From assembly GCA_010093705.1 (NCBI GenBank), contig MU006089.1, positions 1,723,561-1,787,560 of the forward strand: a stretch of 64,000 bases of DNA, written 5' to 3'. The position numbers and the translations under genes were made by a program. This DNA comes from Patellaria atrata CBS 101060. Lineage: Eukaryota. The notes below the pieces were generated by a model. The model saw only the letters and a program-made list of their open reading frames with translations, searched no databases and was not told where the DNA came from. Positions 1 to 47,100 of the stretch are shown piece by piece (position 1 is the first letter of the stretch; each line of letters opens with the position of its first letter).

Positions 1-2250
1 CGAGGTCATCAGTATCTCCAAACGTCGATTCCTTTTCCGTGATGTCGCGATCGAAATCTTCTTTGCGGACGGTCGAAGTTATCTCTTGACAGCCATCTCT
101 CCGCAACTTCGAAATGATTTGTATTCCAAATTAATGGTCCGGGCTCCTCACGTTAACAATCCATCTTCTTTGATGCTATCAGAAGATGCCTGGAGAATTG
201 AATCATTACGAAACCCAGACGACGTTCCACAAACCATAGGTTCGAGATTCACAAGCGTGTTCAATTCAACGGCATCAAACCCTGCCACTAGGAGATGGGT
301 TAAGGGCGAAATATCAAATTTTCACTATCTGATGCTCGTCAATACCTTAGCAGGAAGGACGTTTAACGATCTGACGCAATATCCTGTCTTCCCATGGGTG
401 GTAGCTGATTATACCAGTGAAGAACTAGACCTCACCAATCCCAGAACATTCCGGGACTTCTCAAAACCGATGGGTTGTCAAACTGCTGCTAGAGAAGCTG
501 AATTTAGGGATCGATATGTATCCTTTGGTGAGATGGGCGACCACAATGCTCCAGCATTTCACTACGGTACACATTACTCGTCCGCAATGATCGTTTCTTC
601 ATATCTCATTCGATTGCAACCATTTGTTCAGTCATATCTCCTATTACAAGGAGGCAGTTTCGATCATGCAGACCGACTTTTTTCGTCCATTGAACGTGCT
701 TGGCTTTCCGCCTCTCGAGACAACATGACGGACGTACGGGAACTGACTCCCGAGTTCTTTTATCTTCCGGAGTTCCTGATCAACAGTAACGGTTACAATT
801 TCGGTTTTAAACAAGGCACAGGGGAGAAGATTGACGATGTTACCTTGCCCCCTTGGGCGAAAGGAGATCCTCACATATTCATCGCAAAACACCGAGAAGC
901 CCTTGAGAGCCCATACGTCAGCAAGCACCTACACCAGTGGATTGATCTTGTCTTTGGGTTCAAGCAGCGTGGAGATACCGCCATTGATGCGGTAAACGTT
1001 TTCCATCATCTCTCTTATCACGGTGCCAAAGATCTAGACACGATAGAAGATCCAGTCGAGCGTCTTGCCACAATTGGCATCATACACAACTTCGGCCAGA
1101 CACCTCACCAAGTCTTCCAGAAATCCCACGTTCGCCGTGAAGAAGCGTCACAGCGATACAAACGGCTAGACAATGCCTCGGAATCGCTAGCCCGTCTCCC
1201 CTTCCCGCTGCTCGAGTCTCACGAGAGGGTGTCTTCGCTCCTCTACTCGCCGAAGTACGATCGTCTTCTCTGCTCCGCCGCTTTTAGAATCAATATCCCG
1301 CCAAACTATGAGAGGTACATGGAATGGGGTTTCGCGGACGGAAGCGTACGGTTCTACGCCGCAGACTCGAAGAAGTTGATCGGCTTGTTCGAGCACATAC
1401 ACCAAGGCCAGATATCTTGCGCGACCTTCCTAGATAGCAAGACCCTCATAACGGCGGGTACCGACTGCACCATCTCCACGTGGACAGTTTCGCCGGGAGC
1501 GAAGACTATCGATCTACAGCCTCGCGCTACGCTCTTCGGGCACCGGAAGCCGGTCACTGTACTCGCGGCTAGCAAGGCCTTCAGTACCTTCCTCTCCGCC
1601 GGTAGCGACGGGAAAGTTTTCCTCTGGGACCTAAACCGGCTCGAGTATATCCGGGAAGTCGACAACGGGAACCGACCCGTTGAATGCGCCAGGGTGAACA
1701 ATGTCAACGGGCAGATCATGCTCGGCTGCGGGAGACGGGTGAGGCTCTTCACGCTAAACGGCCATCTACTGCTCGATCAGGATGTCTGCGCCAAGGGCGA
1801 GGACGACGAGGTGGTTAGCTGTGCGTTCTACGAGGGCGTTGGGAACGAGTGGTTGGAGCGGGAATTGGTGTTCACGGGACACAGGAGGGGGAGGGTCAAT
1901 GTGAGTATATCATCCCGCCTTTAGTCGAGTCACTCGACTCGACACACTTCCGTCCTTCATGGTTAATCCGTTTTGCGATAGATATGGAGTAAAATCGTCG
2001 ATCCGGCTTCTGGGAAATGGACGCTCGAACTCGTCAGACGCCTCGACCACGTCGATTCAGGCAGGGAGGATAAGCAGAATTTCGCGGCTGCTATTACGTG
2101 TATTTTGCCCATGGCGCAGGTGGTCTATACGGGGGATGAGGATGGCAGAGTCGTAAGTTTCCCTTATATCTGATTGCTTGTGCTTTGGATTCGATGGACT
2201 AACTCTTTCGTTAGTCCGAGTGGGATTGTTTGCAGAGACATTCGCATTAG
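1..2250 (+). CDS. BPH1: BEACH-domain/WD40 protein (Bph1/beige-like), 3' portion; gene starts upstream of the window
   Basis: BEACH motifs (ISNFHYLMLVNTLAGRTFNDLTQYPVFPWV, FHYGTHYSS, DVRELTPEFF, WIDLVFG, NFGQTP) followed by WD40 repeats. Introns 1901-1981 (GTGAGT..ATAG) and 2153-2214 (GTAAGT..CTAAC..TTAG); final exon SEWDCLQRHSH* ends at 2250. Confidence 0.93.
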
Positions 2251-2876
2251 ATGAGGAATGAGGTGTCTTTGGGAGGAGCTTAATGTGCTGGTATGGTTAG
2301 ATGGTATGGGCGGTTATGGTGTGGCATACTTTTTCTTCAGGTCCTATGGCAGCGTCTCCATCGAGCGAGCAATAAAATAGAAGGGTATGCCTGTCTCATG
2401 CCTATTTTCTCAAGGCGTAAGATAGATAGAATAGGTGGTTTCAAATCATAGATCTTTCCAATAAATCCCCGAAACTCGAACATTTAAAAAGGCTTTGGAA
2501 TCTACCATGGTTGATGAAGGTGTTGGGTACCCTTTCTCGTTATCTTATGGCCGTCGTTATGGTTTCCACGAGATATGAAGAATCACTGGTGGTTGAGATG
2601 ATTGTTGTACATGTCTACAGTATTGACGATGAGCATTAACTGTAGGGGGTAGGTTGTTCTCTATGATTGAGGTCATGGTGCTGTTGCAACTGGAACGGTC
2701 TGCCCTTCTCGTCTAATAATAATAACTTCATGTGAAATTTTGTTGTCCTGCTACTTTGTAGTATCAACTTTCGTGTCTCGCACTCGTACATTGAGATGTA
2801 ATCATTTCGTAGCCTTTCATGGTCTGAGGATGTTCACAGACCGAGAAACAACCGAATGTTCAGTTCTAGTTCTATC

Positions 2877-2905
2877 GATAAGACGATAAGATGATAAGAT
2901 GATAG
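2877..2905 (+). promoter_or_regulatory. Cluster of four GATA motifs (GATAAG x3 + GATAG, 8-bp period), about 0.9 kb upstream of metallothionein 1
   Basis: Sequence gataag-ac-gataag-at-gataag-at-gatag; matches the HGATAR GATA-factor core. Function is inferred only. Confidence 0.3.
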
Positions 2906-3795
2906 TCAACCAGTGACGTCCACTTTTCCTTTTCCCTTGTTGTCTCACGATTTCTTCCAAAGATGACTTTCCATCACCCTATCAAAACTCATGAGATATG
3001 AGATGACATGATCAAAGACGGAAACCGACGGCGGAAAATGCGGCTTTCAACCCCTCCTCCACTCATGAAGGACGGGAAGCCCTGAAAAACTCTCTCATCC
3101 GATGATCTCGTACCGTTTCCTACGTAACCCGACTTGGTCGATTACATTTGATATTCCAGCAGTTTGTCACCACAACCCACGAAACCTGCTCAAATGACGG
3201 CTGCGGCGTCCCCTCCAGTAAATCGGGTAGGAGGAAGATGATGGGCGATGATTGGCAGCGATGTGAACCCAAGAGCTTCAAAGACCGATGTACCTGTGTA
3301 TACATCCCCATCTGTCGCTCTGACTGGCACGAAACAACACAACCCCAGACTTTTCGGTATAGTTAGGTGTGTGTATTTTCTTCCGTCTCGTCTTTCTAGA
3401 CCTTCTACATCGGATCATCGGCGGCGAGCTTCCTTCCGAAAGGCGAACCAGAACTCTCGCCACTCCTTGTCACTCGTCACGTGGAGAAGGGAAACCCGGC
3501 ACAAGGCTGTCTTTTCACTCTTTTCATGCTATCCTAACCTTCAAAGAGATAAAGGCGAGCGCGGGGGTTTTGGTCATAGGCTTTAAGCTTAGAATTTGCC
3601 CCGCCACGTGCCCGCTAGTAAGAAACTACTTATCAACACCCTTTTGCCCACCGTCCGACTGTTTTCTTTTCTCTTTTCCAGTTCATACTTCAGAAATAGC
3701 AACGATTCTACAAGACTACGCTCCTTTCGAGTATATCGAACCAAGCAACGAGACTTCTACCTTTAACAACTTTCCCCAAGAACAACATAGTCATC

Positions 3796-3958
3796 ATGGG
3801 CGGCTGCAACTGCGGAGACAACTGCACCTGTGCTGATTGCACTTGCGGCGTAAGTTTACTCCCTTCCATCTCACCCTTTCTCGCACGATACACTACGCAG
3901 TTTTTACATCCTATTGATTGCTCGAACCCTAAGCTAACATAAAACCCATTAGAAATAA
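3796..3958 (+). CDS. Metallothionein-like micro-protein, 19 aa: MGGCNCGDNCTCADCTCGK
   Basis: Exon 1 3796-3849 (catcATGG context); intron 3850-3952 (GTAAGT..GCTAAC..TTAG); exon 2 AAA TAA 3953-3958. Six Cys in three CxC motifs, typical of short fungal metallothioneins. Confidence 0.85.
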
Positions 3959-4559
3959 TCAACCTCTTCCCAACCCACCTCAACTTCCCTCATGAACCCC
4001 GCCCTATAACCCAGCAACCCTCCACCTCTCTCGCACAAACACCTTATCCACACCCTTCACGGCCTCTTTCCCTTTCGGAAACCCAGTCCCAAATATGTCC
4101 TGAATACCTTTCGTCGACCCTCCTCCCAGTCGCTCGCTCTCAGCACACGACAAGCACAAAACACTTTCACGGGGGAGTGGTCTCCTTTCGTCGGCATATC
4201 ACATTGTTTCGTTAGCATAACATTCCGGGCGTCACCTTTCGAGCACCGAGAAGAAAATAGGGGAAGATGAATCAAATTGGATAAGCATACTGGTTTACGG
4301 CGGAAGCGGTTGCGACAATTTCAAACGAGGGTAATCAGGAATGTGTATTAATCTGATTTTTCTTGTCACTGCATACTCGAAAAAAAAAGTAATTTATAAA
4401 AAAAATAAATGGACCTCGTACGGTCGTGACTGTCGGATTTTTGGTGCTCTCCAGATTTGATCTGTCACCTGGTGAGATGTGATGTAACTTGGAAACTACA
4501 CAATCAGCTTGACAGGCCTACATATCATTCATGCTCTATAAACCGGACCTACCCCTTAC

Positions 4560-5030
4560 CTTATTGGTTATGACCCCTATTCAGTATTATCTTCAACCTC
4601 GGTCAACCAGTTCCTGATTCAGTGTGATCCTTGCGCAATGCACACTGACCCTTATTCATCTTGATTTCCATTCGGTATGACTTCCACTCAGTATAAGTTT
4701 TGATTAAGTATAACCTCTATCCAATATGGCTTTCATCTCGACCCCAATCCTCACCCATCACGATCCTTACCCATCATGATCCTTACCCATCACGATCCTT
4801 CTCACTACTAAAAACCACACTCATCATAACCCTCCCCCACTAATCTGACCCCTTATTCATCATAATCATTCAGCCTCTTATCAGTCCAGCCCTCCTCCAC
4901 TCTAACGCCCGACCCCTCATAACACTCATCAAGATCTTAATCTGGTACAACCTCCACTCAACCAGATCCGCTTACTCGACGTGATCTTCGCTTCAGCATG
5001 ACCTTTCAATCAGTATGACTCTCCAGCCCT
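4560..5030. repeat. Degenerate ~16-bp minisatellite with a near-perfect core of 3 x ACCCATCAYGATCCTT at 4753-4800
   Basis: The core is three 16-bp units with one mismatch. Flanks contain related units (tatgacccctattcag, tatgacttccactcag, cttgatttccattcgg, tataacctctatccaa). Outer boundaries are approximate. Confidence 0.6.
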
Positions 5031-5628
5031 TATTTAACACCCCAGCCTCACTCAAAAACAATCCCTCACACATCCTGCTCCTCATTCCAAACCCAAAGTT
5101 CCTTGATGTGCAAAGAAAAGCTACAAACACCCAACGACAGCATGAGAAAATGTGTCGGAACGGGGACAGACGTGAGTGAGATACTGTAGCACTGTACTGT
5201 ACTATACTGTTGTTTGTGTAACACGGTAATAGTTACATTAAGTTTGAGTGGGCGCAGGAAAATGATCCATCCACCTGGAGGTGTGACCTCATAGCATTAG
5301 GTGGGCAGTGGCAGAGCTTAAAGTCACGACATGACATATTGAAGACGCATAAGAAACACAAGGCATGGGTATGTATGGTCATGATATCACGCAGGCGAAG
5401 TCACACAAAAGCACAGTTCAGCTGAGAGCAGATGTTTGTTAAGCATGATATTGACTATCCATGTCAGAACGAGTATTTGTGAATGAGTGTCTCCATTACA
5501 TTCCCGACCATGGCAGCAAGGCCAGTCTGAAACTCAAGAATCGAGCTACACCAATGAGAAGATGAGCATGTCATTGTTCAAACGTCATGAGAATTGGCAG
5601 GTGACAGTTCGAAGAGAATATGTCCCGT

Positions 5629-6146
5629 TTAGTGCTGATGAGAATGTTAGTCATCTGATACTCTGACAGAAACATGAATGGGAATGCGCGGGGTGTGTGA
5701 TGAGGGGCGAGGCGACAGGAAGAAGTAGTGTAACACAAAAGCTCATGCCCAGCAATGTTGTGTTCCAACACTCGAGAACATGCTATCATGGTGTGCTGTG
5801 TTGTCAGACGCGGGTAGGTTCGCGTAAAAGCTCCATGAAGAGAAGGGGGGTGGTTGATTGGTCAGCTGTGCACGCAGGCAAACCGTGTAGATATGCGGGG
5901 TCCGAAGTATAATAGAAAGGTGTACGGCAGAAGAGAGATGGGAAAATAACAGAGACGAGGACATGTGCGGAAAAACAACATCTGGGATGGATGAAAGTGT
6001 GAAAGGTGACTTACGCCGCAAGAGGTGCAGCTGCAGCTGTTGCAGTCGCCGGAGCAAGAGCAAGATGAGCATCCACTGTGAAAAGGCTTCATGTCAGCAA
6101 TCAAAACTCCGTAAGCTGGAGGATGGATGGCATACCAGGGAGACAT
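5629..6146 (-). CDS. Metallothionein-like micro-protein, 25 aa: MSPCGCSSCSCSGDCNSCSCTSCGH
   Basis: Exon 1 6146-6136 (ATGTCTCCCTG); intron 6135-6076 (GTATGC..GCTGAC..CACAG); exon 2 6075-6015; intron 6014-5635 (GTAAGT..GACTAAC..ATCAG); exon 3 CAC TAA 5634-5629. Eight Cys, Ser/Gly-rich, CxC/CxxC spacing. Confidence 0.85.
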
Positions 6147-7485
6147 GATGATTGAGTTGTTGAACGGAAGTTCGATGGAGTTGATATGCGAGTTTGGTTT
6201 GAGGTTGTTGTATGAGCTTGATGGAGTGTCGGTGATGGGTAGTTGTAAGAAGCTGGAAGGGGACGAGGCGCCTTTTATGTTAGAGGTGTAGTTTCCAGAT
6301 TACGTAGCGAAGCTCTCATCGGCACCGGTTTCGGGACAGAGCTAAGGCGAGGTAGGTTGGTCTTGTGGATGAAGGTGGAAGGCACGAGTGCTTGGTAGCA
6401 TACATCCCACTGCCCACCGTGCCTACCTGATCCGGCCCCATGTCACTACCTAGTAGGTAATGTCACTCATGCGGCCAGTACCCAGGTAACTTTGGTACTA
6501 CCTCAATTCTCCGCAGTCTGCGTCGAGACCATTCGAGGCATGGCTTGGTCTTTACTTGGACGGCGAATCAACAATGTCACCCACCCTTCCTTAACAGAAG
6601 TTCATCATGTCCTGATAACATGCAGTAGAGGTGGGGAAGTCTGCTGAATTTTCCTAAGACTGGCCAACGAGGTCAAAGATAAGCCCAGCTATCTTACTGG
6701 AGGAAGGAGTCGCATACGGCGGAACGCTTGGAAATCTAATAAGGTAAGCTTGCTTCCCTTGTAGCAGCTTTACCTAAATGCTAAATCAATTAAACAAAAA
6801 AAAAGCAAACGTTGCCTAGATCACAGCATGTGAAGGGCTAATGTATAATACTGACAAGCAGAAAAGACGCAGGTGCTCGTATGCAGACAAGGGTAGCTTG
6901 GCTGCCTAGGTACCTAAAGTATGTAACCGTAGCTAAGGTAAGGAAATGATGGCTACTGGTTTGACTGAGAGTGTGGGATAAGCAAAACGGCCGGAAATAT
7001 GCCGAAAGGATAGCGGAGCATTGAGATGCATAAACAAAGAGAATGAGAAAGACGGCAAGAACGTGACACCAGCTGGGAAAGAACTATCCGGAAAGAGATA
7101 TATCTCCTCAATCGGTGGATTAGATGGTACCTTAGATATAGTATGACAAGAGAAAAAATAGCAAATAGGAAGGTACGAAGGAAAAGTAAATGAAGTAAAA
7201 CGTGGGGAGGAGAGGGAATTCAACGAGGCTCCTGTATGACAGTAAGGTACTGAAAGGTAAAGGAATGGTAAGGTAGGAAAGTAGTGGCGCAAGGTGTGGA
7301 ACCCCTTCCGCACGCTAACCAATCATAGAGCGTATAGGTGAAAAGTAAACTTCAAGAGGTGGTGATAACTTACAAGCTTCAGGCATTGCTCTCGCCTCAC
7401 TTGACAGCACTCACGAATTGTCATTGGGACGATTACTTCACATGCCGCACTAGAAGTCCATCAAGGTACTCGTACTAAACACCTT

Positions 7486-9202
7486 CTAACCGAGGGACAT
7501 GGCAGCATCATCACTCAGACCCCAATCGCTTTGTTTCTGCTGTTGGAAGGAGGGAGGGCTGACAATATCATCTTCATCACTTCTCCGGCTCTCGATGCTT
7601 CCACCACTCTCTCCTGTCATCCCACTCTTTTGACTTGCGGCCTGACTGTTCCTTCGGAACCACCGTCGTTTTCGCGCTTTGTTACTCGAGTTGTCGTCGT
7701 CTTTGATGGATGGAACGTAGTCGTTTGCTGCCTCTTCAGCTGGGACTGTCTCAGCCTCCGAGAGGCCACCGTCTCCGGCTTCCTTAGGTCGAGGTGTCGC
7801 TGACGGCGTGATCTCCGTGGAAGGTGTGACCTCCACAAGCTCTGCGGCACGGTACCACTTTCGCCTACGAGTGTACCGGCCCCATCCGTCTTGTCCACGT
7901 TTGCCATCTCGCCACTGTGGATACAGTCAGTCGTAGAACATATGCATCGTGAGTGATTCGTACTTTGTTATCGTAGTAGATCCATCCGGCTCCGGACGTA
8001 TCCGCCTTGTCGCCGTCTCCTGATCCTGCTTCCCCTTCGGTTCCCTCAATTCTCCATTCGCTCCCTTGAATCCATCTCCATCTTGCGTGACCTCCTTCAA
8101 CCTCCGGTAGCTCAAAGTGATCCTTATCAGGTACAGCGTTAAGGTGCTCGTCCGTCCATGAGGCCCTCTCATAAGCAAGCATGGAAGACGTCCATCCGAT
8201 TCCAAGCCACCTACGTTGGTTTTCATATAGTGTGAACGTGAATCGTATCCCTGGAGAAGTCGGTCTCCGCTTGGCTGCAAGTGATGCTGCTACTTCATTT
8301 GCATTTTTCTTTCGCGGTGGTAACGGTGGCCTATTTTCCACAATATCCTCGTCAAGGCCGGCTATGTCCAGTCCTGTAATAGTAGCGCATACTTTTCTCA
8401 CTGTCTTTGATCTCCACATGATGATACGGGATACTCTTGCTGGTCGAGAATGCCAACTCAATATAAGCGTCCCGACAGTGAGGATGACTCTCTTGGATGT
8501 GATAATATAAAGGGGTGGTAAAGTTAGAACGATCCATATTGGGGTAACGAAGAGTATCCGGATAAATAGCGTCGTGAGTGCTGGCCTGGTTGTCGCTGAA
8601 GTAGCCGTGCTCTGCGTTGACAAGAAATCCGTAAAGCGTAGGAATGGGTCCAGAAGAATATTACATCTCGATGTAAAGAGCTTTAGAGTATCGATAATCT
8701 CGTCCAGGCTTTTGTGGTGTCTAGTACCGGCCTCAGAATCTCCCCTTTTATGTCCCTTTTGGCCTTGCCCCTTCTCGCCTGTCCATCCTGTGCTAGAGAG
8801 TGGAGAATATCTACGAGTGTACATGCCTAGAATGAGACCGCTGACGACTACTAGAGGGCCAGCATACCGCATTACGACGTCCCCATAAAGTGTGATGAAC
8901 CAGAATGAAGCAACTAGAAGGAAACTTTCCCATGGATCTCCCGTCGTCCATGATAGTAACCCGACAAACTTATTTAAAGGAGATATGAAGGGATGTGAAT
9001 ATGCAAGAGCTCGAGTTACCTGTGGAGGTGTAGCCACGAGAAGAGGTGACTTTTGATGTACGAGTATAGTGGATCGTTGCTTGTTAACGGAGGGGAAGTG
9101 GCTCAGGGTGGAAGGTGAAAATGCAGCGACAGTAGGAGTACGAAGATCAACATTTTGATGAGAGCCGTTATTATCGTCGGCTCTGGAGGGAGTGGAAGAC
9201 AT
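7486..9202 (-). CDS. Pex23/Pex30-family peroxin (reticulon-like region + dysferlin domain)
   Basis: Motifs LLSWTTGDPWESFL, FTLYENQRRWLGIGW, WTDE, GWIYYDNK|WRDG, GRYTRRRKWYR. Intron 7963-7915 (GTACGA..CTGAC..CACAG) joins ORFs 7865-9280 and 7486-7836; first ATG at 9202. Confidence 0.9.
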
Positions 9203-9960
9203 CTGTGTCAGCCAGGGAGTGTCTGTACTATATATTAGGATTCGCTGGTTGAACAGAATACCCTGATGGCGACTTGCCAAGCGCGGCCATGCATAGGCCC
9301 TTTGCAGATGCGCAAGTTGTTATAGGCGAGAGAGCGCAAGGATACTGATAAGTCGAAGGTGATAGAACCTCTTATATGCCCGAGGCGTTCATGTTTGCGT
9401 GCGTTGGGCGGAAATGGGAAGGAAAAGATGGTGAGGTAGGTGGGAACTGATATAAAGAGAAGGACGTGGGGATGACTTCGGCCCTGCGTAGATGACAGAC
9501 TCACATGCAACCCGGGAAACTGGGAGTACAGATTGTACCAGGAGTAAAGTATTTTAATAAATGACTTGTCACTGTCAAATAAAAAATTGCGAGGTGACTG
9601 GAAAATTCAAAAAGACTATAAGGGAATACAAGTCAAACGAAGAATCATCTTGTCGCAAAGAGTTATGAATCCCCCATCGCACGCGTCAAGGGGAGAATTA
9701 AGCCTCGGGGAAGATCTCGTAAAACATCGTTGAAAGTCGGACACTGCACGTGATCAGATCAGATAAGATATCTTTGATCTGTCGGGCCGTCATCTCCCGG
9801 GCGAAAAGGGTAACCTCCGATTCCCGTGACTGGGAAATTATTTCGTCGCCGCAAGAGGTACTCAACAAGCCAGCATCACGCGTTTACGCCGCTGCAGCCA
9901 TCGGATCCCCCTCTAGCTCATCAGAGTGACCAGCTCAAATTCTCATATACTCTCAGTAGC

Positions 9961-11352: not shown

Positions 11353-12296
11353 TTAAGCAGCTGAGGGTTTTTCAGCGACAGCAGCGTAACTAGGTTGAAG
11401 CTCATCATCATTCTTGCTGCAATTCGCGCAGGCACATTTGCCTGGAGCACACGAACACACGCTGGCCTGAGAACCACAATTGCATCTTGTCTTGTCTGTA
11501 CCCGACACTTGTTCGACCTTTTTCCCAGGTTCTTCACTTGACTTTCCCTTTTCTCCGCTATCACTCTTGCAGGTCTTCAGATCGGCGAGATGCCTAGCCT
11601 CATTGTGTACATCTAGAACCTGCTTGTTGGTATTCTCGTAGAATTGACGAAGCTTCTGGCCGGTTGGGGTACTGAGGGCCTTCTCGAAGTAGGAAGACAG
11701 GCCTTGCCATGCAGCAAGTCCTTTGTCAGTCGCACCGACTTTGGCGTCGGCTGCCTGTGCCTTTTCTGTTGCTTTGTATTTGTTGTCAAAGCTCTTCAAA
11801 GCATTTAGAAATCGCTCCGAGATCCCATGTTGTTGATCAAGCTGAATGCCCTTCTCTATAGCTTTGTCGCTAATGGTATATCCGTGGGCAAGGTATTCAG
11901 CTAGGATACGAGAACGGGGCTTCACTTCTTGCGGCACGTCGTCGTCATCTTTGTGTTCCTCAGTACCTTTGGATCCTCCTAAATCATCAATGCTTGAAGC
12001 ACTTGAGACATGAACTTGGGTCGGTCCAAGCTGGGTGTTGTCGAGCAAGATAGCAGTGTTTGCTGCGGTCTCTTTCTCGAAGGTGACAGTCGCGGATTGA
12101 GTAGCGTCGGAGGCATCCGATGTTGGCTTGACGGATATTGAACTAATCTTGCCACTAACGCCAAAATTAGCATACAATAATATAGAGAATATAGAGAAGT
12201 AATGCACGTGTGGACTCACCAGAAGCGGAAGAAGTCGTAAACCTGTTTCTCACTTGTCTCGTGAGAGATGTTGGAGACGTGGACTGTAGTAGACAT
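11353..12296 (-). CDS. Vip1-like RRM-domain protein with Cys-rich C-terminal tail
   Basis: Exon 1 12296-12220 (MSTTVHVSNISHETSEKQVYDFFRF); intron 12219-12155; then CGKISSISV..ATVTFEKETAANTAILLDNTQL..KPRSRILAEYLAHGY..DVHNEARHLA, tail CNCGSQASVCSCAPGKCACANC. Confidence 0.85.
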
Positions 12297-21243: not shown

Positions 21244-21333
21244 GCCGGGGTAGCTCAATCGGTAGAGCGTGTGGCTCTTAGCCCTCTTGCTAAGGTTACC
21301 TCAAGGTCGCGAGTTCGAGCCTCGCCTTCGGCT
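21244..21333 (+). tRNA. tRNA-Lys(CTT) with a 17-nt intron (21281-21297)
   Basis: Acceptor stem GCCGGGG/CTTCGGC, D arm GCTC-AATCGGTA-GAGC, anticodon CTT at 21277-21279, T arm GCGAG-TTCGAGC-CTCGC, T-tract just downstream. Confidence 0.93.
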
Positions 21334-44117: not shown

Positions 44118-47100
44118 ATGCCATCACTTAGTCTGGTTCGAAACCAAACGGAAGGCTTGACTAAATATGAATGCACAACAGAGCGAACTCCTCTCGAGTA
44201 CGGTCATACAACAAATGAACCGCAGCCCCCAGACGCTGTATACCTTCCGCGAGCTGCTGGTTACACATATTTCCCTTCACCTAAATCCTCGTTGTTCGAA
44301 GACCACACTGTGCTGGAGTTGAAGGGTACAATTTCTGAAGATGACTTGACTACCAGCACGAGCGACACGGAATCTTACACCTCGTCTGCCGGCACGACTC
44401 CTCTGACCGAACCAAATAGTTTGAATGAGGATTTTCACTTTGAATTTGGGGAGACGGACCCCGCCGTTACGATGTTACGACTTATGCGTCTCAACAAGAA
44501 AGATTCCCAGGAAACAACATCTCCGAACCAAAATGTAGAGGGTAACAGTTCGGAAGCAAGAAGTCGTAAAGTGACAAAAACGACTTCTCCTGTTAGGCGC
44601 TCACTTTCGAACTTCAGACGCAAATCTTGGCTGGGAACTTCTCGATCACCTTCTCCACCCAAACCCATGCAAAAAGAGCCGATCAAGACAGAGACGGAAA
44701 CCCCCTCCGATGTGGCCCCTGGTGTAGCACGTCGCATGTCTTTTGCTCTGCGTCGCCGAAGTTCCAGTCACGGGCCATCGCAAAACAGGAAGCGGGATAT
44801 GTCGAATGGCGGAGATACTACAAAGCTCGATGTGAAGCCAAAACGGCCGTCAAGCGTTTTTCTGAAAGATCCAGGGTCAAACCCTACTTCCCTTCAAGAT
44901 GAAAAATTACCGGCTGTTCCATCTCTACCCAAGTCTTTTTCTTCAGACAGGTTAAGGCGACTTCCCACAGCCCAATCCGTCAAGGATCACAAACCTCTAG
45001 TCCCAACTAGCCTATCTTCAGACAAGCTCAAAAGTTTAAAGACGGATTTGAGTAAGAAAAGGGACGACTTGTGGACAGTCTTTAGAAACTTGGACTCTGA
45101 ATATCATAAGTAAGCAAATCCAAAAACAAAAAAACAATTACTGCATGCCGCTCACCTTTCCCCAAAACAGGTTCCAAAACAAAACAACTATTGCCCTAAA
45201 AGCCAGTATTGTCCGCACAGCTCTTTTGCCATTTCTCAAGGGCTACAGGGTTCACCCGTCAAATAAACAGTTACGGCCCGAAGATCTTGATCGGCGCATC
45301 AACATTTTGAACCGATGGTGGACCGGACTGTTGGATATGTTGCACGGCAAGAATAACCAATCTTTAACCGGAACCGACCGTCCTGCTGTCTTAGATGCCA
45401 TTATCGGAATCATGGAACGTCTGGAGTGGAGACATGCACCTTCCCCCTTTAGCCCCTTATCTGAACGTTCAAAATCCCAGAGTATCCCAAGTTCCATTTC
45501 ATCGACGTCGGTATCGTCAAGTTCGTCTGATTTCCTGATTGAATCTGTACATCATAACGTGCGAAACACTTTCATTCAGAATTTACTAGGTCAAATGGCC
45601 TTTGTTATCGAAAAGATGTCTCTCCGCACAACCCCTGCAAGTGTTGTTGCATTTTGTGGGAAAACTTGTGCCTATGCTTTCTTCTTCTGTCCTGGAGTTG
45701 CCGAAATTCTCGTAAGACTCTGGAATCCTTCTATGAATACAATGAGACGGATAACTGAAGAAGCTGGTCTCGCCCGTAACGCGAAGCCGTCCACTACTCA
45801 TCCGAATATATTACCTGCATTCCCTTCACACCTTCATCGGCTTAGGTTTGGGAGTCTTCTTCAACTGTCACGGGAACTTCGAAAACCATCTCAGCTACCA
45901 TTGGGAACGAACGATTTTGATTGGCGTGGCCCATGGGTTAAACGCTGGTGTGGGAGAGAAACTGACTTGTTCTACGTTTTTGTTAAACACTATCATATTT
46001 TGGCAATGGAGTTCTTACCTGAGGACGCTTCCAAAATTGAGAGACTTTGTGTTCCTGGATTAGTTATTGTTCACGCTCAGATACTTGAGAATCTGGATGC
46101 TACCATTCATCGGAGTACCACTTCGAGTCAACGACCGGAGGAGCCAACACAAGGTCCTGCGACTATCACTTTTGATGATGTCCTTACAGATCCAGATACC
46201 TCTGCATCTGCTTTAGCTGTACTACCGGCCAACGCCATTCGTTTAATGGCAGAAAACCGCATCATCATGTCGATCCGTGACTATCTATCTGGAAGGGGCT
46301 CGAAGTACCTTTTAGGCCGTCACGTCTTCGCACAAGCTTTCAGCGACATCATGAAAGCATGTGCGAAAAATACCTCTATTTACGATTTTAATGCTTGTTC
46401 TCTGCTCTGCGATTTTCTTGAAGAAGCACTTGTAATATTAGTTCGATATGAATTTACGCTCACGACTGAACAACCAGTGTTAGATTGGCCGTTCTGGCTC
46501 TCAGTGTTCCAGCGCTTGGCTGAGAGCGAAAACACACTCACTGAGATTAGACTCTATTCCTTTTTGTACAGTAATTGGCCGATGCTCATTCAAGATCCTA
46601 CTCGTCGGTCTAGTCTTTGTCTTGATTTTCTTTTAGATCCTCAGTTTTTTCAGTCTAGGTTCAACCATTGGTGTCCTATGGTTCGGGCGTACTATATGCG
46701 TTTACTCTGTTGGCGCGTTGCCAGATTGGACGGTGATGGTTCAAGTGTCGAGTTGTAAGTGATCAAGCCCGCAGTCAAGATGGTGGCACTAACTTGGTAT
46801 AGGGAAATATTACAGAGGCTAGCTAGCCAGTTGAGTGTTGTGTGGTCTCATTATCTCTTCCTCATGCAAGAAGCCCAATCCGATCAGAAAGGTTTCCCAT
46901 CCAGCATCCCTTGTCCTCCTGCCCCAAACCGACGTCTACTCATAATCCGGACGGACGGTATTCCATCTCCTAACAACAATGTCTTTTTTTCTGATTCTAT
47001 GGATTCATCTCAAAAGAATTTGATGACGAGCAGCGAGGTTTCGCTTGATTCGAGACCGTGGTCTTCCCACTCTGACTCCTCGGACTCCTCAGACGTCCCG

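Follow-up and report, generated by a model that had tools for sequence, protein, structure and literature searches.

Two short cysteine-rich genes arranged tail to tail

Within the 64,000-nucleotide (nt) stretch of Patellaria atrata CBS 101060 DNA analyzed here (contig MU006089.1 of assembly GCA_010093705.1; hereafter the window), two short cysteine-rich reading frames, which we refer to as gene 1 and gene 2, are found in convergent, tail-to-tail orientation with their stop codons 1670 nt apart. We put at roughly three in four the probability that both loci are unannotated, very small metallothionein genes of this filamentous ascomycete. Taken separately, gene 2 is very likely to be a real gene and gene 1 is likely to be one.

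Gene 1 lies on the forward strand. Its first coding exon (3796..3849) comprises 18 codons with six cysteines (translation MGGCNCGDNCTCADCTCG) and is followed by a predicted phase-0 intron of 103 nt (3850..3952), which carries GTAAGT at 3850, CTAAC at 3934-3938 and TAG at 3950-3952. The last codon, AAA (Lys), and the TAA stop codon (3953..3958) follow, and the 3' untranslated region (UTR) continues in the same exon. As spliced, gene 1 encodes 19 residues with six cysteines and a C-terminal lysine.

Gene 2 lies on the reverse strand and is predicted to contain two introns. The coding part of exon 1, ATG TCT CCC TG (6146..6136, with the ATG at 6146-6144), is separated by a predicted intron 1 of 60 nt (6135..6076; GTATGC, CTGAC at 6097-6093, CAG) from exon 2 (61 nt, 6075..6015), which holds the last base of one cysteine codon and seven whole cysteine codons and ends in TGC GGC. 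A predicted intron 2 of 380 nt (6014..5635; GTAAGT, CTAAC at 5650-5646, CAG) precedes the last codon, CAC (His), and TAA (5634..5629). The spliced product would have 25 residues, eight cysteines and one histidine, located at the C-terminus.

The frames, start codons and intron signals proposed by the initial annotation are thus all present in both genes. Its description of these as micro-exon genes goes too far, since the transcribed exons include UTRs; the first and last exons are tiny only in their coding parts, and neither gene is a micro-exon gene in the usual sense.

Gene 2 belongs to the family filed in Rfam as Afu_254

Scanning window positions 3000-7000 (4 kb) against Rfam returned a single match, RF01504 'Afu_254', an Aspergillus fumigatus small RNA (sRNA). 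This match (6215..6005, reverse strand) covers the gene 2 leader, exon 1, intron 1, exon 2 and the following donor, and extends over model positions 1-158 of 158 with 57.7 bits and an E-value of 5.3e-8 (1.5e-8 in a repeat search in 1.1 kb). The gathering score of RF01504 is 60 bits, and the shortfall of 2.3 bits goes together with a 66-nt insert in the window. As a control, 65,795 nt from three further fungal loci were scanned and gave no match to Afu_254.

The Afu_254 consensus consists of a leader followed by AUG UCU CCC UGC UCC UGC, six further bases, and UGC UCC AGC AAC UGC AAC UCC UGC UCC UGC UGC UCC UGC GGU CUG UAA. Read in codons, this is a 23-codon frame with eight cysteines, which starts with Met-Ser-Pro-Cys and ends with Cys-Gly-Leu-stop. 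The leader of gene 2 together with its ATG TCT CCC TG is identical to the consensus at 22 of 27 positions. From CCCUG to the next UGC in the alignment, there are 79 nt in the window and 13 in the consensus, and the net surplus of 66 nt equals the 60-nt predicted intron 1 plus two codons. Fourteen codons of exon 2 could be aligned to the consensus, of which seven are identical, four synonymous and three replaced, the synonymous differences including two AGC/UCC serine switches. As the codon differences are mostly synonymous and the insertion/deletion pattern fits codons, this comparison points to a conserved protein frame.

Similarly, the consensus has one codon and a stop after UGC GGU, as does the spliced end of gene 2, and in the window this Cys-Gly-one-codon-stop ending is restored solely by the proposed splice. 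Because the Afu_254 alignment covers the ATG at 6146 and the leader, we place the gene 2 start there; an alternative start at the in-frame ATG at 6092, which would begin with Met-Lys-Pro, was rejected on these grounds.

Overall, gene 2 and Afu_254 are alike in leader, start codon, cysteine-rich exon and number of cysteines. The consensus differs from gene 2 in lacking both an insert at intron 1 and an intron ahead of the last codon. With two codons fewer, it also has a cysteine in place of a threonine of the window and ends in leucine instead of histidine; moreover, it is catalogued as an sRNA or long non-coding RNA (lncRNA; 'Gene; sRNA' in Rfam) and not as a protein gene. On the evidence of this alignment, gene 2 is a member by homology of the family filed as Afu_254.

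A mis-annotated Claviceps relative of gene 2

We used the 94-residue read-through frame of gene 2 as a query for phmmer against 1,835,955,588 representatives, which at E <= 0.001 returned two matches. One of them, a Claviceps sp. 'hypothetical protein' of 92 amino acids (aa; KAG6049376.1), matched with an E-value of 4.2e-4 and 77% identity over query residues 21-46. Its residues 12-31 are identical to gene 2 exon 2 at 17 of 20 positions, with all seven cysteines aligned. The likeness starts near the predicted acceptor and stops at the Gly-Val that corresponds to the GT of the predicted intron 2 donor, and past this Gly-Val the two read-through sequences share nothing. Since the likeness ends at the donor, the Claviceps model appears to be a read-through of the same exon, annotated as a 92-aa protein, and the exon border appears to be conserved. 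The other match, an 850-aa repeat protein (E 2.9e-4, 28% identity, 10 stretches), was set aside as compositional.

The annotated start of KAG6049376.1 is an in-frame ATG that, in a comparison by protein sequence alone, corresponds to gene 2 intron 1. In the window, this predicted intron is in frame and stop-free, and an in-frame ATG AAG CC (ATG at 6092-6090, reverse strand) lies right after its CTGAC branch box and would encode Met-Lys-Pro, as at the start of the Claviceps protein. Both read-through sequences also have Phe-x-Ser just before the exon. The Met-Lys-Pro stretch common to the two could be a shared splice-signal sequence or a matter of chance.

Taken together, the predicted exon borders and start of gene 2 are supported, at the level of sequence, by two independent relatives, the Claviceps protein and the Afu_254 consensus.

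Coding signature and splice signals of both genes

Frames with at least six cysteines in 18 stop-free codons occur three times in the window, and two of these are gene 1 and gene 2. The same count in 100 Markov shuffles gave a mean of 0.21, with any such frame in 16 of the 100. The third frame of the window (45624-45689, forward strand; PHNPCKCCCILWENLCLCFLLL) is hydrophobic and without CxC periodicity, and is probably a chance occurrence. A CxC..CxC..CxxC motif matched two places in the window, gene 1 and the tail of a protein with an RRM domain (see below), and had no match in 427,778 nt from 37 metagenome loci of related fungi, which were collected by way of the C-terminus of BPH1, a neighbour of the pair (32-83% identity).

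Codon usage sets the two genes apart from their surroundings. Third-position C is found in 27 of their 37 codons, compared to a frequency of 0.278 in four neighbouring genes (p 1.6e-8), and the excess is also present in the non-cysteine codons (15/24, p 4e-4) and in each main exon (12/17 codons in gene 1 exon 1 and 15/20 in gene 2 exon 2). Third-position G occurs in none of the 37 codons, compared to 0.232 in the same neighbouring genes. Both genes start in a CATCATG context, as does the nearby RRM gene. For gene 1, the start context reads TAGTCATCATGGGC and the G content of the leader falls at the 4.8th percentile of 120-nt windows, and for gene 2, the start context reads CAATCATCATGTCT, like that of the RRM gene, with the leader at the 0.4th percentile.

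All three predicted introns carry canonical splice signals (donor, branch box and acceptor). Seven YAG sites were scanned in gene 1, and only the proposed acceptor has a branch motif at normal distance; in gene 2, the proposed site and a TAG at 5782 both qualify by branch motif. For each terminal intron, only the proposed acceptor combines a branch motif with a metallothionein-like end.

For gene 1, no relative was found, and the case for this gene therefore rests on start context, leader, codon bias and splice signals. The language-model neighbours of its unspliced frame are all metallothionein clusters (scores 0.79-0.80), which we take as no more than a lead. An A-rich tract at ~4380-4410 may represent its polyadenylation region.

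Metallothionein class and possible metal preference

Metallothioneins are recognized operationally as small proteins with approximately 30% cysteine, CxC and CxxC motifs and few aromatic residues. Both peptides have this make-up, with 32% cysteine in each, CxC motifs, and no Phe, Tyr or Trp in either. The pattern described for family 8 (fungi-I) in an excerpt of PMC4755600 is X2-[CXC]-X5-[CXC]-X3-[CXC]-X2-C-X3, with seven cysteines. Compared to this pattern, gene 1 reads X3-[CXC]-X3-[CXC]-X2-[CXC]-X2, with six cysteines, and gene 2 reads X3-[CXC]-X2-[CXC]-X3-C-X2-[CXC]-X2-C-X2, with eight. The first spacer of gene 2 is 2 and not 5, an extra C-X2 is present and only the C-terminal half fits; what it has in common with family 8 is the [CXC]-X2-C-X2/3 tail, the X3 spacer and the format of a very short CxC peptide. 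Genes 1 and 2 are, in terms of class, very small fungal metallothioneins, a known class, and not strict members of family 8.

Very small metallothioneins of this kind include MMT1 of Magnaporthe oryzae, which has six cysteines and resembles genes 1 and 2 in its very small size. MMT1 is 23 aa long and was missed by pipelines with a 50-aa minimum, according to an excerpt of bioRxiv 10.64898/2026.05.04.722827, in agreement with the expectation of the initial annotation that gene callers overlook such genes, and an excerpt of a review (PMC9036806) connects it with the cell wall, with defence against oxidants and with pathogenicity. Very small metallothioneins are routinely lost from fungal annotations, and the sole relative found here is itself mis-annotated.

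Podospora anserina PaMT1, a small, copper-induced ascomycete metallothionein, offers a further comparison through the primers listed in an excerpt of PMC2654708. The forward primer encodes a Met-Gly-Gly start, as in gene 1, although its second codon may be dictated by the NcoI site added in this primer; a Cys-Lys end is encoded by the reverse primer. A genomic primer has CTATAG followed by the last six codons, and since CTATAG precedes these codons, the PaMT1 intron seemingly lies six codons before the stop and not one (same excerpt). Judging by the Afu_254 consensus and by PaMT1, a last coding segment of a single codon is not general in the metallothionein class.

Literature searches with the literal peptide motifs of the two genes returned nothing in the literature searched. 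The conserved exon end plus donor pattern gave nine prokaryote matches, which is about the chance expectation, and three in viral contigs, none with a metallothionein context; the same kind of scan with the gene 1 pattern gave no match.

With regard to metal preference, the seven-cysteine protein of Neurospora crassa takes six Cu(I) and that of Agaricus bisporus approximately 5.8; a small metallothionein of Heliscus lugdunensis has eight cysteines (excerpt of PMC13107397). Titles of papers on the H. lugdunensis protein call it cadmium-specific, name the detoxification of cadmium as its main role and show that its histidine residue has been studied. The combination of small size, eight cysteines and a histidine is also found in gene 2 as spliced. 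The H. lugdunensis protein presumably has 24 residues, a Ser-Pro-Cys start, a histidine end and the cysteine spacing of gene 2. Given the small size, the eight cysteines and the histidine, a preference of gene 2 for divalent ions is plausible, and by analogy its peptide may favour Cd or Zn; the six-cysteine peptide of gene 1 may favour Cu(I) or Zn. The suggestion of the initial annotation that the two differ in metal preference has a parallel in the literature for the gene 2 peptide, namely the H. lugdunensis metallothionein. In any case, the pair would provide two natural peptides, one with six cysteines ending in lysine and one with eight ending in histidine, for comparing metal preference.

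We propose the following sequence of events. Transcription of gene 2 would start from its G-poor leader and translation from the ATG at 6146, with removal of the 60-nt and 380-nt introns yielding the 25-residue peptide with eight cysteines and a C-terminal histidine; its family would be conserved across Pezizomycotina, as suggested by the mis-annotated Claviceps gene and the A. fumigatus/Rfam Afu_254 locus. In gene 1, removal of the 103-nt intron would yield the 19-residue peptide with six cysteines ending in lysine. By the general rule, the initiator methionine would be removed before Gly or Ser, and the cysteine thiolates would bind metal as small metal-thiolate clusters, comparable to the seven-cysteine Neurospora and Agaricus Cu(I) proteins. 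Translation of both frames and metal binding are what we infer from the above.

Implications for the non-coding RNA afu-254

The name afu-254 occurs in Jöchl et al. 2008 (PMC2377427) and in the title of a 2026 mSphere paper (PMC13317194), according to which A. fumigatus needs this long non-coding RNA for its responses to oxidative and cell wall stress, for azole susceptibility and for virulence. Term counts for the latter article give 117 occurrences of 'afu-254', one of 'coding potential', and none of 'metallothionein' or of 'cmtA', the name of an annotated A. fumigatus gene; going by these counts, the article leaves the metallothionein frame undiscussed. On balance, we favour the view that the RF01504/afu-254 'lncRNA' is the messenger RNA of a 23-25-residue metallothionein conserved across Pezizomycotina, that gene 2 is its orthologue, and that the afu-254 phenotypes arise from loss of this peptide.

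If this is true, these phenotypes would stem from the absence of a very small peptide that buffers metals and redox state, similar to what is described for Magnaporthe MMT1, and in some lineages the last residue and the stop codon would be split off behind an intron. Translation of the afu-254 frame would give a simple biochemical cause to stress and virulence phenotypes that have been ascribed to an lncRNA. The product would also supply the small metallothionein that work on Aspergillus copper tolerance calls unidentified (excerpt of PMC5447758).

Relationship of the two genes to each other

Twelve of the 37 related BPH1 loci have at least 4.5 kb downstream. In none of the 37 did we find a metallothionein-like frame or a Pex24 gene downstream of BPH1, nor were Pam16 or RRM genes found in them. 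Six cysteines within 16 codons were seen at six places in six of the loci, in frames that are rich in Arg and Trp or contain CC runs, and none is metallothionein-like. Likewise, when 122 frames of the window were compared with the related fungi, matches were limited to BPH1 and its antisense frame. Because these loci share no other gene with the window, they say little about the pair, and the proposal that its position between BPH1 and the Pex30-like gene is conserved is left without support. The sole part of 1900-7900 with DNA likeness to the BPH1 loci is 2011-2165 on the forward strand (8/37 loci, 70-80% identity); as it lies just past the stop of the long frame, the BEACH/WD40 gene probably has one more short exon there.

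Between each other, the promoters of genes 1 and 2 share two 10-mers, which is at chance level (shuffle mean 0.97), and none of the Ace1/AceA, Mac1, Zap1/ZafA, MRE, Yap and HSE motifs is common to both. Two CACGTG boxes are present in the gene 1 promoter. The DNA common to both genes amounts to 14 nt at the Cys-Gly/GTAAGT border. With so little shared DNA, and with gene 1 not matching the Afu_254 model, the old duplication put forward by the initial annotation is unproven, but the two genes may share an origin. The spacer between the genes contains short tandem repeats at 4662-4694, 4747-4800 and 5191-5210, which comprise a 16-nt unit (ATCCTTACCCATCACG) repeated 3.4 times, a second 16-nt unit repeated 2.1 times and an ACTGT run.

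Evidence against and alternative explanations

Several observations weigh against the assignment of both loci as metallothionein genes. Splicing of all three introns is deduced from signals in the DNA. By fungal standards, intron 2 of gene 2 is long, and if the TAG acceptor at 5782 were used, which has a CTGAC branch box 19 nt before it, a tail of 43 residues not rich in cysteine would result. The RF01504 score is below the curated cut-off, and the match was missed by the gathering-threshold scan of the window. Furthermore, the 3' half of the Afu_254 model (positions 81-158) is approximately a run of UGC-containing codons and matches prokaryotes weakly: a Flectobacillus genome gave 39.1 bits, and among 14 prokaryote genomes used as controls 7 had matches at E <= 1, none of which exceeded the cut-off. 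For this reason, what counts most in our view is that the match is full length and takes in the leader and the start. Composition-corrected BLASTP of the gene 2 frame against the Claviceps protein aligned only five identical residues (E 36), and gene 2 had no match in PDB, as a single query or as a two-row profile, or in Pfam, its exon giving none with Metallothio_2 (PF01439). Word-based protein searches with the 40-aa and 94-aa read-through references of the window had no match, and neither product was found in a collection of 5.8 billion proteins within the lengths searched. For gene 1, a word-based protein search found no relative, Rfam including Afu_254 gave no match at E up to 10, the exon scored 13.3 bits against Metallothio_2 (E 0.17; cut-off 23) and PDB returned only matches at E 1.8 and E 5.4, the latter a fish metallothionein. 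Neither gene follows the cysteine spacing of family 8, and the two promoters contain none of the Cu/Zn-responsive motifs looked for.

These points bear on a number of alternatives. That one or both frames represent chance or decayed sequence is most plausible for gene 1, which is without a homologue in the protein word, PDB, Pfam and Rfam searches, and 16 of 100 shuffles yield at least one frame of its cysteine density. However, gene 1 has a strong start context, a G-poor leader, third-position C bias and a canonical intron with just one codon between it and TAA, and gene 2 is conserved, so that we regard this explanation as very improbable. Alternatively, the genes may be real with different models, through a retained terminal intron (giving a 49-aa gene 1 or a 94-aa gene 2 product), another acceptor (for gene 1 at 3901, for gene 2 at 5782) or translation of gene 2 from the ATG at 6092, which would read MKP through the in-frame, stop-free intron 1 and leave seven cysteines; the Claviceps annotation indeed begins at MKP and reads through the donor. 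The Afu_254 consensus argues otherwise, as its contiguous AUG UCU CCC UGC and leader align to the ATG at 6146 and it ends one codon past Cys-Gly like the spliced models, while the read-through tails are hydrophobic, not cysteine-rich and not conserved with Claviceps, and site 3901 has no branch motif. We consider such differing models quite unlikely.

A functional non-coding RNA from the gene 2 locus, with the short frame untranslated or irrelevant, would agree with the cataloguing of RF01504 as 'Gene; sRNA' and with the lncRNA title and the zero count for 'metallothionein' in PMC13317194 cited above. We give it little credence, given that the frame is kept in three lineages (the window, Claviceps and the Aspergillus consensus), that aligned cysteine codons are all kept but one position (consensus Cys, window Thr), that of seven differing codons four are synonymous, including two AGC/UCC switches, that, the intron apart, the lengths differ by 6 nt, that the ATG and its context are conserved and that codon bias towards third-position C is strong. 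Beyond the genes themselves, the initial annotation saw in the pair the outcome of an ancient duplication, a co-ordinated module of two metal-buffering genes that divide the metals between them. In both genes, GTAAGT does follow Cys-Gly and the terminal coding segment is a single codon, they differ in cysteine number and last residue, and the H. lugdunensis titles describe a cadmium-specific eight-cysteine metallothionein with a studied histidine. Against this stand the chance-level promoter words without any of the metal-response motifs looked for, a gene 1 not detectably related to the Afu_254 family, DNA likeness limited to 14 nt at the donor, absence of the pair downstream of BPH1 in the 37 loci and the seemingly different place of the Podospora intron in the excerpt of PMC2654708. 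We regard the module as unlikely.

Neighbouring genes and further features of the window

The neighbours named by the initial annotation were found where it had placed them: the end of the BEACH/WD40 gene (BPH1) at 2-1924 on one side of the pair, and a Pex24p-family gene at 7865-9319 (reverse strand), followed by the Pam16 gene, on the other.

Further along, a two-exon gene at 11353-12296 (reverse strand) encodes an ascomycete RRM-domain protein, a call based on the nearest Atlas cluster ('RRM domain-containing protein', 0.93) and on Pfam RRM_1 (E 0.006). Its cysteine-rich part (11419-11484) forms a seven-cysteine tail module, C-N-C-x6-C-S-C-A-P-G-K-C-A-C-A-N-C, which closely resembles CXCX3CSCPPGXCXCAXCP, the seven-cysteine unit of the long metallothioneins of Tremella and Cryptococcus (excerpt of PMC4755600). 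It therefore appears to be a third metallothionein-like element within 8 kb of the pair, here fused to an RNA-binding protein.

A tRNA gene at 21244-21333 (forward strand) was detected with Rfam RF00005 (50.8 bits), and it probably contains an intron, as the match takes up 90 nt, compared to 71 positions in the model.

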